A program made the position numbers and the translations under genes. Shown here piece after piece: positions 22,638-26,982 of a stretch of DNA of 32,000 nucleotides (positions are counted from its first letter, which is position 1; each line of letters starts with the position of its first letter). Source of the DNA: Edaphobacter aggregans (GTDB taxonomy: Bacteria; Acidobacteriota; Terriglobia; Terriglobales; Acidobacteriaceae); NCBI RefSeq assembly GCF_003945235.1, contig NZ_RSDW01000001.1, positions 5,670,001 to 5,702,000 on the forward strand. Reading direction: 5' to 3'. Below the pieces are notes generated by a model. The model was not told the DNA's origin and ran no database searches. It saw nothing but the letters and a program-made list of their open reading frames with translations.

Positions 22638-22951
22638 ACGCAAACCTCAGTGGTTTGGATGCGAATTTATGAGTAATGTTGTGCCAACTCGTAGCTCAAC
22701 TAGGAAAAGAACAGGTTCTTACGAAATGCACATAGTGTGAGCAATTTGGGCCAGCTTTGCTGCAGCAGCAAAAGTTAGTATCTGTTTAGGCAGGAAACTA
22801 CCCATCAGCAAAACCAATTCGCCCTCTTGTCCTCAATGGGAAGAGTGCCCTTTTGCCTGAGTCTATGGGAGCGGCCAGATACTGGCGCAAGCGCCCCCGA
22901 CGAATGTTGTCCATTCTCTACACGGTACTCAGGAGGATTAATGAAACTCTA

Positions 22952-23612
22952 TTGAAGACTTCGACCTTTGGCGCGGTGCTTGCTTTAGTGACCGCTTTTG
23001 CGTCGGCAGATTCGATTCAACTAGGTAGTTACCAGACCGGTGGTTCAAACCTGGGTAATGGAAACACTGCTGTTGCTTTCGTGGGAGGATCTACCACAAC
23101 ATTTGCTCTCAACCCAGATGGTGTGTGGGCGTCTGCAGGAGCCAACTCATTCTGGGTCTCGAATAATGCAGGATCAGGCCCAGAAGGAAGCGTTGTTGAG
23201 CCCAACGCTGTCTATTCGTACACCACCACCTTCACTATCCTATTCAGCAATTACACCGGCTCCATCTCGATACTGGCCGACGACACAACCGATGTGATCT
23301 TCAACGGTCACATGCTGGATCCAGAAGGCAATCTCGGCAGCGACGCTCATTGTGCCACCTCCTAACTGTTCCGTTCTAACGTTGATTACCCTTCCAACGG
23401 GGGACTTTCTGATTGGCCTGAACACACTGCAATTCGATGTGCAGCAAGAAATCGGCGGGACGGGACTTGACTTTTACGGATCAGTCACGTCAGCCGTTTC
23501 AATCGCGGCCATTTCGGAACTAGGAACGCTGTTGCTCTTGGGGACCGGTCTGATCGGATTTGCCGGTGCATTGATGCGCAGGTCGCGAGCTAAGCTCCAA
23601 ACACGAGGTTAA
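22952..23612 (+). pseudogene. PEP-CTERM-type secreted protein, split by a +1 frameshift and with a degenerate sorting motif
   Basis: ORF 22853..23365 (signal-like KTSTFGAVLALVTAFASA from TTG 22952) ends at ...GSDAHCATS*. ORF 23352..23612 continues in another frame (PPNCSV...GLNTLQFDVQQEIGGTGLDFYGSV) and ends with a PEP-CTERM-like anchor, ISELGTLLLLGTGLIGFAGALMRRSR. In that anchor PEP is replaced by SEL (23514-23522). Confidence 0.6.
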
Positions 23613-24011
23613 AAACTTTAAGCCCCAATCTTCCTCTAATCAGGATGATGGGGCTTCAGCAATCGCTTCGTATCCCGGTAATCGTCCCTGATCGTCTCGA
23701 AGTACGGCTTTCGCGTATTGTACGGCCATGCGTCGCATGGACATCCGAACCCAACCCGAACTTCACTGCGGCTGCGAATCAATCGAACGCTGGTCCGGCG
23801 GTGCAATCTAACTTATCCGACGGTTGCACTCCTCACGATTTAGTCCCGACGATTCTCACCGAGTGTTTGGCCCTGTTAGCAATAGTTGTAGGGCTGGGCA
23901 CTTGTCCGGAAAATCGACTTTCGTCCAACTACAAACCTTTGGATTGGCTACCATCATCCGGAACACCCCAAGCCTCCCTTTTCAGGCTCAATGAGTGACT
24001 CGGTCGGATCT

Positions 24012-24383
24012 TTACTCGCTGAACGGAATGCCAAACGCAAGCATGGCCGTCGATGGTGGTCGATGTTGTGAGCCGATAACCGTTGGCTCCTTCCCCATAG
24101 CTTTCCAGACCGAAAACGCCGCATCATTCATATAAAGAAGTCGCACCTGATCGCTGGTTTCGCCTCTCTGGCTGTAGATGCTTACTGTTCTTAACAGTTT
24201 TGTCTGGTCTGATTCAGTAAGGAAATAGCTCATGCTTATAGCAGGCGCATTCTGAATATCCCGTACTTCGCTTTCACTTTGCGCGATGATTCGGTAGTTC
24301 ATGGAATCTGTGAGGTGCCTCGCCTCAAGCCGAAATAAGACCTCATTCGAGGTATCGCCGGATGCATATTGGACATCATTCAT
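24012..24383 (-). CDS. Hypothetical 123-aa protein, last gene of the small-protein cassette
   Basis: Its ATG overlaps the stop of the upstream gene by 8 nt (GAATATGAATGATG), which suggests translational coupling. No family recognised. Lower GC than the surroundings. Confidence 0.5.
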   Translation of the reverse strand: MNDVQYASGDTSNEVLFRLEARHLTDSMNYRIIAQSESEVRDIQNAPAISMSYFLTESDQTKLLRTVSIYSQRGETSDQVRLLYMNDAAFSVWKAMGKEPTVIGSQHRPPSTAMLAFGIPFSE

Positions 24384-24714
24384 ATTCTTCTTTTAGTGCG
24401 AGGGTCGTGCCAACTGGCAAATGTGAACGGCACATAGTGGCTTTATTCGTCTTCGAGAAGCCGTAATACCTTCGCCAACAATCTACACAGCGAATTGGAC
24501 GTAACGCTAGAAAAGATAAAGACCGGTCGAGAGGATGGAACTTCGCATCGGTAAACTCGATCGAGCTACAGACTGGGCACTCTTTAGGAGAACCTAGCAA
24601 TCTGGGAAATCCAGCCGGCCATCTAAAGTGCAGCGAGTTCATTTCCTTGACTCCATACTGAATCGTGACGCTGAACTCCATACTGCATTTGATGTCATGA
24701 GAACAGGCGCGCAC
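24376..24714 (-). CDS. Small 4-Cys zinc-ribbon protein
   Basis: CPVC-N26-CVDC (…SPKECPVCSSIEFTDAKFHPLDRSLSFLALRPIRCVDCWRRYYGF…). The likely real start is ATG 24642 (MNSLHF, with GGAG 8 nt upstream), giving 88 aa. The maximal ORF starts with GTG at 24714. Confidence 0.5.
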   Translation of the reverse strand: MRACSHDIKCSMEFSVTIQYGVKEMNSLHFRWPAGFPRLLGSPKECPVCSSIEFTDAKFHPLDRSLSFLALRPIRCVDCWRRYYGFSKTNKATMCRSHLPVGTTLALKEEYE

Positions 24715-24731
24715 GTTCCTGACGATGCTTG

Positions 24732-24941
24732 CTACGAGGAGACAAGAATAGGATTCACCACTAGCGAAGATTCATCCCCACCGGCTATTCGGGAAAGGGC
24801 ATCGTTGATGGTGTCTGTGGTGTTTTGCGCGACGATGTGAAGACGGCGAGTTGCCTTTGAGGTTGTTTGACACAGCTTGTACTTGTTATCGACCTTTTCC
24901 CGGGCACGAAAGATAAGTTCTGAGCGCACATTAGTCTCCAC
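24732..24941 (-). CDS. RNA-polymerase omega-subunit-like small protein (divergent, start uncertain)
   Basis: RSELIFRAREKVDNKYKLCQTTSKATRRLH aligns by eye with RpoZ N-termini (Thermus [25 protein letters not shown]; B. subtilis [25 protein letters not shown]). TINDALSRIAGG aligns with the downstream AL-EI--G helix at similar spacing. GTG starts at 24941 or 24929 give 65-69 aa, which is omega-sized. The 124-aa ORF-track version (start 25106) would overlap the unlisted gene at 25063..25236. Confidence 0.45.
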   Translation of the reverse strand: METNVRSELIFRAREKVDNKYKLCQTTSKATRRLHIVAQNTTDTINDALSRIAGGDESSLVVNPILVSS

Positions 24942-25062
24942 GTTCTTTGCGGCGTTCAGACTATGTTCTGCTGAGTTCGCGGGTGAAATGCAGGTTCTTG
25001 TTGCTTCGATCTTCGGACTCTTCGAAACGCAGCCGAGTCCAGATCCACGCGAGCAAAAAACG

Positions 25063-25236
25063 CTAATCGATTCGAACCATGCGCCCATTGAGTGAGAGGC
25101 AAACATGGATGCTCTCGGCTCGCTCTAGGTCTGCCTCTTCGCGGCTTTCCCCCACCGTTCTATAACATTCCGGGCAGATTGATTGCCACGTCCCATCAGG
25201 GTTGTAGCGGTGCGAAAATTTGATTTCAACCATCAT
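25063..25236 (-). CDS. 57-aa CxxC...HxC mini-protein (paralog B; below the ORF-track length cut-off)
   Basis: Manual translation gives MMVEIKFSHRYNPDGTWQSICPECYRTVGESREEADLERAESIHVCLSLNGRMVRID*. It shares HR-N-DG---SIC--C------R-EADL------HVC with the gene immediately upstream. Confidence 0.55.
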   Translation of the reverse strand: MMVEIKFSHRYNPDGTWQSICPECYRTVGESREEADLERAESIHVCLSLNGRMVRID

Positions 25237-25282
25237 CACGCCGCCTAAAGACGTTGTTCAGAAATGGCCAAGGCTGGATTGG

Positions 25283-25480
25283 TTAGCGCGGTGTCCGAGC
25301 GCGATCAAAAGCCTGTTGGGACAAGATGGAAGGAGTGCAAACGTGATCCTTGTCGTGCGCTGCCAGATCGGCTTCAATTCTTGCATTAGCAATCGTGATC
25401 AAGCACTTCAGACAAATGGAGTCGAACGAACCGTCTCGATTTCGTCTATGCGGGAAGAAGGGCGGAAGGGTGAGAACCAT
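25283..25480 (-). CDS. 65-aa CxxC...HxC mini-protein (paralog A)
   Basis: MVLTLPPFFPHRRNRDGSFDSICLKCLITIANARIEADLAAHDKDHVCTPS... SD GAGAGAGG lies 8 nt upstream of ATG 25480. The ORF-track start at 25531 is less likely. Confidence 0.6.
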   Translation of the reverse strand: MVLTLPPFFPHRRNRDGSFDSICLKCLITIANARIEADLAAHDKDHVCTPSILSQQAFDRARTPR

Positions 25481-25655
25481 CTTGACGCCTCTCTCTTGGT
25501 TATGCCTAAGCGTAGTCCTATACGAGTGCATTGTCTACGAGAATAGATAAACGCATGGTGCAACCCCCTTCAACTTTTCGCGACCTTCACTCTGGAATGC
25601 CGGGCCTCTTTTGTACCAGTTGAGATGAGACAATCTGGAACAAGAGGAGCTGTGT

Positions 25656-26098
25656 ATGGCACGAGGAAAGAAGCATACGGCGGAGCAGATCGTGAATCTG
25701 CTGCGACAGGTTGAAGTGGGTGTTGCGAACGGGAAGACGTTACCGCAAGCCTGCTAGGAAGCCGAGATTGTGGAGCAGACCTACTACCGGTGGCGCAAGG
25801 AATATGGTGGGTTGACGGTGGATCAGGCTCGACGGTTGAAGGAACTGGAGCAGGAGAACGCGAAGCTGAAGCGGTTGGTATCGGAGTTGAGCCTGGAGAA
25901 GCTGGTGTTGAAGGACATCGCCTCGGGAAACTTCTAAGCCCTGAACGACGGCGTTGTGCGGTGAGCCATGCGCGGCAAGCGCATGGCATGAGCCAGCGGC
26001 GTGCGTGCCGTATGGTGAAACAGCCACGCGGCACCCAGCGCTATCGGCCGACACAGCGAGACGACGAAGATAGGCCTACCCAGGCCATCGTAACGTTG
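25656..26098 (+). mobile_element. IS3-family (IS407/IS2-like) remnant: OrfA with an internal stop, an intact -1 frameshift signal, and the first ~55 codons of OrfB
   Basis: OrfA reads MARGKKHTAEQIVNLLRQVEVGVANGKTLPQAC-TAG(25755-25757)-EAEIVEQTYYRWRKEYGGL...LKELEQENAKLKRLVSELSLEKLVLKDIASGNF*. The slippery heptamer G_GGA_AAC at 25925-25931 is in the correct phase. The -1 frame gives LSPERRRCAVSHARQAHGMSQRRACRMVKQPRGTQRYRPTQRDDEDRPTQAIVTLA and then stops resembling OrfB. The left inverted repeat was not identified; it probably lies within 25565-25655. Confidence 0.85.
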
Positions 26099-26460
26099 GC
26101 CATCGTGGCCGCCATCGGCAACGGCGCAGCCTTCCGGAAGGGGCGCGACTTTGCCGCGTGGCTCGGTGTCGTGCCGCGGCAGTACTCGACTGGAGGCGAG
26201 GCGAGGTTGCTCGGCATCAGCAAACGCGGCAACGTCTACCTGCGAAAGATCCTCATCCACGGGCACGGGCACGGGCTGCGGTACTGCGGATCAAGCGGGA
26301 TCGGGCGCCCATCGGAGCCTGGCTGGATGCGCTCGATGCCCGCGCCGCGAAAAACGTCGTCGTGGTCGCCATGGCCAATAAGCTGGCGCGCATCGCATGG
26401 GCTGTGTTATCCAGCGGAGAAGACTACAGACCAAGCAGCAACATGGTCACAGCATCGTGA
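26099..26460 (+). mobile_element. IS110-family transposase 3' fragment (C-terminal ~120 codons), frameshifted
   Basis: IVAAIGNGAAFRKGRDFAAWLGVVPRQYSTGGEARLLGISKRGNVYLRKILIHG continues in another frame as ARAAVLRIKRDRAPIGAWLDALDARAAKNVVVVAMANKLARIAWAVLSSGEDYRP...*. The shift coincides with CACGGG x3 (26258-26275), consistent with a 5-nt tandem duplication. The N-terminal DEDD domain is absent. Confidence 0.8.
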
Positions 26461-26982
26461 GCTAGCGCGGAAAAGACGCCTGCGGCTTGGAAGCGCTGAC
26501 GCGCTCCCACTTTACCGCGCTACGGCGGCAGCTTGAAATTACCCACCGAAGTCTGCATGAGAACGGCAAGGATGAAAGAACAGTCACAACGGCGTGCCTG
26601 GAAACCTGCTGGACGAATTGGTTGATGACGACGACCGACTAATAAGGACAGATACGCGCGCAACTCATCCTGGCCAGGAGCGCAGTGCTCCACCAAAGGC
26701 CGAATACATTTGCGCAGACTTGTCTTCTCGCCCTCAGCTTTTTCCGTGCAGTCGGACGGCGGACCATACATATTCGGCAACTTGCCGAAGCAACAGGTCG
26801 ATCGGAACAAGCTCAAAGAGCGCGTTGCCCTGATATCACCAACCGAGGCAAATGACCGAGGTTTCCCTCATTCAGCGATCCCGACCACAACCCACCTGAT
26901 CACCCGTCGCATGATTCCGCGCCTCGCTGGGTGTGTCATACAACTAGCCCTAACGTCCACCTCAATTTAGGGTTGCGAGTGA

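Follow-up and report, generated by a model that had tools for sequence, protein, structure and literature searches.

We analyzed a 32,000-nucleotide (nt) stretch of the Edaphobacter aggregans genome (assembly GCF_003945235.1, contig NZ_RSDW01000001.1, positions 5,670,001 to 5,702,000 of the forward strand; the window herein) and found that its minus strand carries, between window positions 24012 and 25480, five small open reading frames (ORFs) in the order g1-g2-g3-g4-g5. These ORFs and their order had been proposed in an original prediction made from the sequence without database searches, and our own ORF reading bore them out. Based on sequence comparisons, we assign the third gene, g3, with high confidence as a homologue of the RNA polymerase omega subunit. 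The finding as a whole is that accessory paralogues of a core polymerase subunit reside in a recombining cassette of small genes, which measures 1.2-1.6 kb in Tunturiibacter, Edaphobacter, Granulicella and relatives. The omega subunit is usually regarded as single-copy, and its roles in assembly, the response to ppGpp, sigma competition and processivity are debated. We found no report of bacterial rpoZ/omega paralogues in the literature searched.

Relationship of g3 to the omega subunit

The likeness of g3 to omega was originally called by eye; the homology itself was substantiated by our searches, while the match to the rpoZ profile stayed below threshold. When compared with an NCBI-named omega (P0157), g3 was 56% identical across its first 48 residues in an alignment that is colinear from Met1 (E=1e-17), and a hidden Markov model (HMM) of the g3 family reached the same protein at 6e-13 in an exhaustive search of 1.84 billion representative proteins. 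The wider omega-like family comprised 526 representatives (50% identity) at E<=1e-3 in these proteins. Upon searching two profiles of this wider family against the PDB, we observed that the top 20 matches of profile A3 and the top 21 matches of profile A7 were all omega chains, from several species, with best E values of 0.009 and 0.0049, respectively. Positions 6-52 of A3 align with residues 6-58 of Escherichia coli omega and positions 6-70 of A7 with residues 6-77, so that the alignments span both the NRY.L...A.K.TR.L helix and the second helix.

On the rpoZ family model TIGR00690, g3 alone scored 14.2 bits (E=0.035, cut-off 23.6). The longer 69-amino-acid (aa) form of its ORF scored 13.9 bits (E=0.04), which was the sole lead among the five proteins in Pfam and NCBIfam scans, neither of which gave a significant match. 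Of 57 g3-family members, 51 matched this model, as did 38 of 66 diverged members (best E=1.7e-4), and PF01192 was matched by 15 of the same 66 (best E=0.0056). Besides these two, no other family recurred among the members.

The start of g3 had to be moved from 24941 to the GTG at 24929 (MRSELIF...), leaving the lower end of the gene as originally proposed. MRSE is the N-terminus of all g3 homologues, and this GTG is preceded at 6 nt by a conserved GGAG. Across 57 sequences, 21 of the 65 positions are invariant. Residues N15, Y17, L19, K25, R28 and L30, which the family has in common with bona fide omega, are invariant or nearly so, and this favors retained binding of g3 to beta-prime, the subunit whose C-terminus is wrapped by the short helical bundle of the omega fold. 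A 16-residue PDB match of a narrow g3 profile to the region 4.2 helix of sigma-E (VRSRIFRAREAIDNKV; E=0.27) was judged to be due to chance; it pairs g3 residues 2-17 (RSELIFRAREKVDNKY) with the last helix of region 4.2 in E. coli sigma-E.

Distribution of g3 and of the rho-linked omega

The 144 close clusters formed by the g3 type are restricted to Acidobacteriaceae. Using peptide patterns specific to g3, we scanned 185,579 species, each represented by one genome, and obtained 35 g3 loci in 29 genomes, again all Acidobacteriaceae; the hosts were confined to Tunturiibacter, Edaphobacter, Granulicella and uncultured relatives. We found four copies in the chromosome of T. gelidiferens M8UP28 (NZ_CP132939.1) and two copies in each of three metagenome-assembled genomes (MAGs); the complete genome of T. 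psychrotolerans X4BP1 (NZ_CP132941.1) also carries g3.

The branch represented by P0157 (~75 aa, 3664 clusters at 90% identity) is widespread in Acidobacteriaceae, and many of its clusters bear the NCBI name 'DNA-directed RNA polymerase subunit omega [Acidobacteriaceae bacterium]'. In every context read (L040 3870-5542, L041 5001-6610, L046, L047, L049 and L051-L056, by our locus numbers), the P0157-type gene immediately precedes rho, at a distance of 130-220 nt. The genes further upstream vary and are of at least three kinds (magnesium-chelatase-like, MacB/FtsX pairs and others), and the DNA upstream of the rho-linked omega has a conserved sequence of its own (GCGCGTCTAAA...AAAAGCAAGGAGAC). 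In many other bacteria, by contrast, the usual neighbor of rpoZ is gmk. In the genome scan, rho was absent from all g3 loci, and the genes flanking g3 differed from locus to locus. The expectation that g3 lies off the housekeeping locus was thus confirmed, as no g3 locus holds rho and the NCBI-named omega was upstream of it in all contexts read. We infer from this distribution that g3 is an accessory copy rather than the housekeeping omega and that it would co-exist with a rho-linked omega in one cell.

Two g3 variants in T. gelidiferens M8UP28, located ~680 kb apart (L034 and L035), are identical over the region read. They share their upstream sequence as well as a C-terminus that has been replaced (...NEPNPDSSRTNTTSFWWEMR), and one of them adjoins an intact IS110 transposase; the pair looks like a recent duplication within one chromosome. 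Some other omega-like subfamilies are neither rho-linked nor cassette-borne (for example P0143 at L057-L060 and P0173 at L061), and since these lie off rho in further contexts, the omega-like family appears to have expanded in Acidobacteriota.

Organization and variability of the cassette

We assessed linkage in two ways. Among the 35 g3-anchored genome loci, g4 follows g3 directly in 23, g1 and/or g2 are present in 17, and g5 is present in full in 4 and as a remnant in 3. As an independent, g1-anchored set, we used 33 metagenome loci with enough downstream sequence to judge: g3 is present in 12, with g4 as well in 11, and g1-g2 with a sixth family, g6, occur without g3 in 5. The commonest full form of the cassette is g1-g2-g6-g3-g4, and the exact order g1-g2-g3-g4-g5 was found in three metagenome contigs (L064, L126 and L138). 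The gene order therefore recurs, both as g3-g4 adjacency and as the complete series; what did not hold was the view of the five genes as a fixed unit, since modules shuffle and also occur alone. For instance, g1-g2 are inverted and lie downstream of g3-g4-g5 in L023 and L026, and in L073, L077 and L120 they are found upstream of an omega-like gene so diverged that the family HMM reaches it at only 4e-4 to 2e-9. Directly before this omega-like gene, L073 and L077 have a g5-like ORF (38-59% identity to g5), and L120 has only a C-terminal remnant of g5. That linkage was kept after both rearrangement and deep divergence points to functional coupling over mere co-inheritance, though the coupling is facultative.

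All five minus-strand ORFs are real genes under frame-specific purifying selection. We built codon alignments for each family from 5 to 27 distinct copies from other genomes and pooled the ratios of nonsynonymous to synonymous polymorphism (pN/pS). In each of the six families (g1 to g6), the annotated frame gave pN/pS values of 0.17-0.27 and the two alternative frames gave 1.0-2.3; variation at third codon positions was about double that at the first and second. The in-frame value for g1 was 0.23, compared with 1.16 and 1.43 out of frame; those for g2, g3, g4 and g5 were 0.22, 0.25, 0.27 and 0.17, respectively. The coordinates of the genes and of the features around them are collected in Table 1.

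Table 1. Features of the g1-g5 cassette and its flank in window coordinates
Feature	Position	Strand	Description
g1	25283..25480	-	65 aa, CxxC...HxC mini-protein; homologues with 74-95% identity in genome and metagenome loci
g2	25063..25236	-	57 aa, paralogous to g1 and with its CxxC...HxC pattern; located after g1 in most loci
g3	24732..24929	-	65-aa RNA polymerase omega paralogue (MRSELIFRAREKVDNKYKLCQTTSKATRRLHIVAQNTTDTINDALSRIAGG...), GTG start
g4	24376..24642	-	Zinc-ribbon-type mini-protein by its CPxC-N26-CxxC pattern; 88 aa here, normally 70 aa
g5	24012..24383	-	123 aa, unknown fold; optional last member of the g3-g4 module
Block upstream of g1	25481..25557	-	Conserved; alignment of 15 distinct upstream regions
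Block upstream of g3	24930..25002	-	Conserved; alignment of 27 distinct loci
Insertion sequence debris	25770..26263	+	Flanks the cassette, not part of it; Pfam matches

Two stretches of noncoding DNA are conserved among cassette copies. The block upstream of g1 starts ~75 nt before the ATG and reads GTCTATCT..GTAGACAATGCACC.GTATAGGACTACGCTT, followed by a 5' leader and a Shine-Dalgarno sequence; it is likely a promoter or operator. A hexamer reading within it, TAGACA-N17-TACGCT, is our own and falls under the threshold of our sigma-70 scan. Upstream of g3, a block of 70 nt (CTGCATTTCACCCGCGAACTCAGCAGAAC..TAGTCTGAACGCCGCAAAGAACGTGGAG) that carries the GGAG is conserved among copies and could not be aligned with the DNA preceding the rho-linked omega. 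We considered a structured RNA at this site and rejected it: RNAalifold gave -3.67 kcal/mol with 0 compensatory or covarying pairs, and there was no Rfam match at E<=1. The block is most simply read as a promoter or operator, and it likely provides g3 with its own promoter or operator plus a Shine-Dalgarno sequence. A sigma-70 consensus scan found nothing at the conserved g1 and g3 blocks, and sigma-54 and extracytoplasmic function (ECF) readings of the g3 block were weighed by eye and not adopted. Since g1 and g3 each have a conserved upstream block, the cassette apparently consists of two transcription units, g1-g2 and g3-g4(-g5), with g6 often inserted between them.

The genes g1 and g2 are paralogues, as had been proposed, with 48% identity over 40 aa (BLASTP, E=5e-13). 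Translation of g1 starts at ATG 25480 (MVLTLPPFF), with the Shine-Dalgarno-like sequence GAGAGAGG upstream. H11, C23, C26, H46 and C48 are invariant among 16 members of the g1/g2 family, and both proteins have the two conserved Cys/His pairs by which small metal-binding proteins are recognized, suggesting a putative zinc site. Neither protein had a significant match in Pfam or NCBIfam or a meaningful one in PADLOC or PHROG; the best family match among g1, g2 and g4 was that of g2 to Zn_ribbon_HMPTM (E=0.011; 15.7 bits, cut-off 27). Kinship to GreA was examined and not accepted: the top match of the g1/g2 profile in the PDB was the GreA coiled coil (residues 30-63) at a nonsignificant E=0.22, and the catalytic-tip residue E44 of GreA is not conserved in the profile alignment. 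In L018 (2602-3024), a 140-aa ORF located ~3 kb from the cassette has a g1/g2-type domain (FSHRHNPDGSFDSICKLCFATIASS...HEC) at its C-terminus. Provided that this ORF is real, the CxxC...HxC module also occurs fused to other sequence.

For g4, the CPxC-N26-CxxC cysteine pattern noted in the original prediction stood, and the start was corrected from 24714 to the ATG at 24642 (MNSLHFRW). The window copy is without the usual stop codon of the family (region 24376-24440) and is thereby extended by 19 codons, reading ...KATMCRSH... where others end ...KATT*. The previously noted 8-nt overlap of g4 and g5 is correct and arises because g4, having lost its stop codon here, reads into the start of g5. 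Conservation of C22, C25, C52 and C55 reaches at least 90% across 15 sequences, and a metal site is predicted from them. We found 14 g4 protein clusters in 5.8 billion proteins, none of which is named or domain-assigned; g4 had no meaningful match in Pfam, NCBIfam, PADLOC or PHROG, its profile recovered nothing from the PDB, and its AlphaFold2 (AF2) model was unusable, with a predicted local distance difference test (pLDDT) score of 51.6. The coordinates of g5 needed no revision. Full-length g5 with 85-86% identity is present in genome loci L013, L019, L023 and L026, and remnants are present in L005, L012 and L022; no Pfam, NCBIfam, PADLOC or PHROG family matched it.

The g6 family (63 aa, MSVTVHFKDTSTNK...SVLCAE) lies between g2 and g3, for example at 5735-5926 of L005 and in ~10 other loci. 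It is absent from the window, where the gap at 25062-24930 does not hold even its last codons; L016 and others keep the last few. No meaningful Pfam, NCBIfam, PADLOC or PHROG family match was found for g6.

By blastn, DNA similarity to other cassette copies stops sharply at 24005 and 25557 (upper boundary 25549-25557). The AT-rich span had been taken as one unit from 22.6 kb onward; because similarity to the copies ends at 24005, the stretch of 22.6-24.0 kb is not part of it. The drop in GC content that accompanied this claim is real and only modest, at 49.8% for the cassette (24005-25557) versus 55.0% for the whole window, which places the cassette in the lowest 0.3% of same-size windows and ~1.7 standard deviations under the mean. 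No tRNA genes were found in the window. Outside the cassette, on the plus strand at 22853-23612, two overlapping ORFs of 170 aa and 86 aa look like a single frameshifted gene. The second closes with a hydrophobic segment and then RRSR, which by eye resembles a PEP-CTERM anchor, and a Pfam scan of the two ORFs gave no match.

Just past 25557 lies an IS3-type HTH_Tnp_1 fragment (25770-25937, Pfam E=2.4e-9), and beyond it a Transposase_20 fragment of the IS110 family (~26084-26263, Pfam E=4.6e-15). The region 25570-26600 reads as a composite insertion sequence (IS) scar, with the N-terminus of an IS3-type orfA (MARGKKHTAEQIVNL) recognizable by eye near 25655 on the plus strand. IS110-family ORFs were found near cassette copies in 7 other loci, and the IS debris of the window is similar to those by blastn; intact or fragmentary, such ORFs lie a few kb from the cassette in L011, L014, L018, L020, L028 and L035. 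A tblastn search with g3 gave no match among 72,556 plasmids and 50,697 phages, and IMG/VR contained no relative. In the defense and phage libraries, there was no PADLOC match at E<=0.1, and PHROG matches occurred only at E>=0.12. Recent horizontal acquisition, which had been suggested from composition and the adjoining IS3 remnant, is not supported, as plasmid, phage and IMG/VR matches are absent and only one clade has the family. The description of the cassette as mobile survives in part: there is intragenomic duplication near IS elements, but no carriage by plasmids or phages.

Interpretation and comparison with known systems

We favor, at about an even chance, the reading that g3 is a diverged omega paralogue that serves as an alternative omega in place of the housekeeping one, the product of a lineage-specific expansion carried in cassettes. 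Three parts of this reading are conjectural: that g3 binds beta-prime, that it changes places with the housekeeping omega, and that g1, g2, g4 and g5 have a role. Under it, the conserved promoter or operator block of g3 would be activated under certain conditions, and g3 would then replace the rho-linked housekeeping omega on beta-prime. The exchange would alter the core enzyme in its assembly or stability, its sigma preference, or its processivity and termination. In this scheme, the small cysteine-rich proteins would be partners expressed together with g3; that they bind RNA polymerase is only a guess. The original proposal of a module that retargets or modulates RNA polymerase is plausible, likewise as conjecture. 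The fullest version, in which cassette paralogues with promoters and zinc-binding partners of their own form a set of exchangeable omegas that swap with the rho-linked omega and reprogram core RNA polymerase, is put forward tentatively and is less likely to be right than not to be.

Several observations count against an alternative omega. The presence of both a rho-linked omega and g3 in the same genome rests on distribution. The score of g3 falls short of the curated thresholds for omega, at 14.2 bits versus 23.6 on TIGR00690 and with no match to PF01192 or any other Pfam family, and the narrow g3 profile, built from the 42 closest relatives, recovered no omega from the PDB. The AF2 model of g3 alone is a single continuous helix over residues 2-49 that is not recognizably the helical bundle of omega (pLDDT 81, predicted template modeling score 0.48); a monomer cannot show a bound conformation, and the model has too few features to justify a fold search. 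Association with the partners is optional: g3 occurs by itself at 12 of the 35 genome loci, mostly as more diverged copies, as does g1 at 12 of the 33 metagenome loci. Lastly, the rho-linked type also fails TIGR00690, and its omega name is a computational annotation. Because these NCBI-named omegas score only ~13 bits, the whole acidobacterial omega branch is divergent, and by this measure the housekeeping type lies at least as far from the model as g3 does.

Two other explanations are each improbable to a similar degree. In the first, the omega fold has been co-opted and g3 has ceased to be a polymerase subunit, serving either as a decoy or inhibitor that titrates beta-prime or blocks the omega site or as a small helical adaptor in an unrelated process, within a selfish or conflict-type cassette that multiplies by duplication close to insertion sequences. 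The multiple copies, patchy distribution and variable flanks of g3 would fit such a cassette, as would the IS110-family genes near the 7 other copies and the IS debris abutting the window cassette. Co-option would also suit a C-terminal third that differs from the housekeeping type and the single long helix of the AF2 model. We nevertheless consider it doubtful, given that no PADLOC or PHROG family matched at E<=0.1, that g3 is found on neither plasmids nor phages nor in IMG/VR, that the element has no terminal repeats or recombinase, and that N15, Y17, L19, K25, R28 and L30 were kept, as if contact with beta-prime had been retained.

In the second explanation, clustering reflects descent: unrelated small genes happen to lie on one duplicated segment, the omega paralogue may be redundant or decaying, and its neighbors have no part in transcription. 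This would account for modules that occur apart (g3 alone in 12/35, g1 alone in 12/33 and g1-g2-g6 without g3 in 5/33), for the absence of any partner with a recognizable function, and for signs of decay, namely a g4 fragment in L011, the g5 remnants of L005, L012 and L022, and the loss of the g4 stop codon in the window. The purifying selection seen in all six families, however, implies that none is decaying as a family, and with 21 of 65 positions invariant in 57 sequences, g3 is highly conserved. Inheritance of a single segment also does not predict that linkage persists after inversion (L023, L026) and divergence (L073, L077, L120), and we regard this explanation as unlikely. Least likely by far is that g3 is the sole housekeeping omega after loss of the rho-linked gene in this clade; MAG samples of the rho-linked-type clusters read do differ from g3-type samples, but this sits poorly with 1-4 g3 copies, with differing sequences within one chromosome, with variable flanks near IS elements, and with 3664 rho-linked clusters versus 144 for g3 in Acidobacteriaceae.

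A clade with a rho-linked omega locus and, in some genera, 1-4 diverged g3 copies offers a natural experiment on omega, in which one may ask which properties respond to a change of omega and whether it works together with small zinc proteins. The adjacency of omega and rho in Acidobacteriaceae may interest researchers of termination. If g3 does act as an exchangeable omega, it would represent a layer of transcription control that operates at a core subunit rather than a sigma factor and that is duplicated and shuffled within genomes, and the swap could act on sigma choice, on stability in cold or acidic soil, or on Rho-dependent termination. If the paralogues do not bind RNA polymerase, they would be a case of a core-subunit fold recruited to a new role. 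In addition, five uncharacterized small-protein families are gained, with solid coding evidence.

Among known systems, DksA/TraR and the Gre factors are small zinc-binding RNA polymerase factors. The likeness of g1, g2 and g4 to them lies in small size, in Cys/His metal-site patterns and in genes placed beside a polymerase-subunit homologue. The ligand spacing differs, being C-x2-C-x19-H-x-C in g1/g2 and C-x2-C-x26-C-x2-C in g4 as against C-x2-C-x17-C-x2-C in DksA/TraR, and Pfam, NCBIfam and PDB profile searches gave no significant similarity of g1, g2 or g4 to DksA/TraR or Gre. Closer to g3 are P0143 and P0173, which belong to the same profile family, have the same length and MRS-type start and likewise lie off the rho locus. 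Unlike g3, they are solitary, located beside phosphoenolpyruvate carboxykinase (PEPCK)/TetR or HAD hydrolase/MFS genes with no room for neighbors of the g1/g2/g4 type.

The P0157 family shares with g3 the MRSELIF start and the motifs NxY.LCQ, SKATR.LH and DT.ND.L, and both score 13-14 bits on TIGR00690. They diverge in the central segment, which is HKPNTRLQ in the rho-linked omega and HI(A/V)A(K/Q)NTT in g3, and in their C-terminal tails. The P0157 family is also longer (~75 versus 65 aa), adjacent to rho where g3 never is, and larger (3664 versus 144 clusters), whereas g3 is accompanied by g4 and often by g1, g2, g5 or g6. Bacterial RpoZ in general (TIGR00690; PF01192, RNA_pol_Rpb6) resembles g3 in small size, in N-terminal colinearity and in the pattern N-(R/K)-(Y/F)-x-L...A-x-(K/R)-x-x-R-x-L of the first helices, and the second conserved helix reads I-N-D-A-L-x-R-I in g3 against V-I-A-L-R-E-I in RpoZ. 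Cys20 and His31, invariant in the g3 family, are absent from E. coli omega. In contrast to the single-copy core subunit, g3 is multi-copy and patchy, lies off the housekeeping locus and has conserved upstream DNA of its own.

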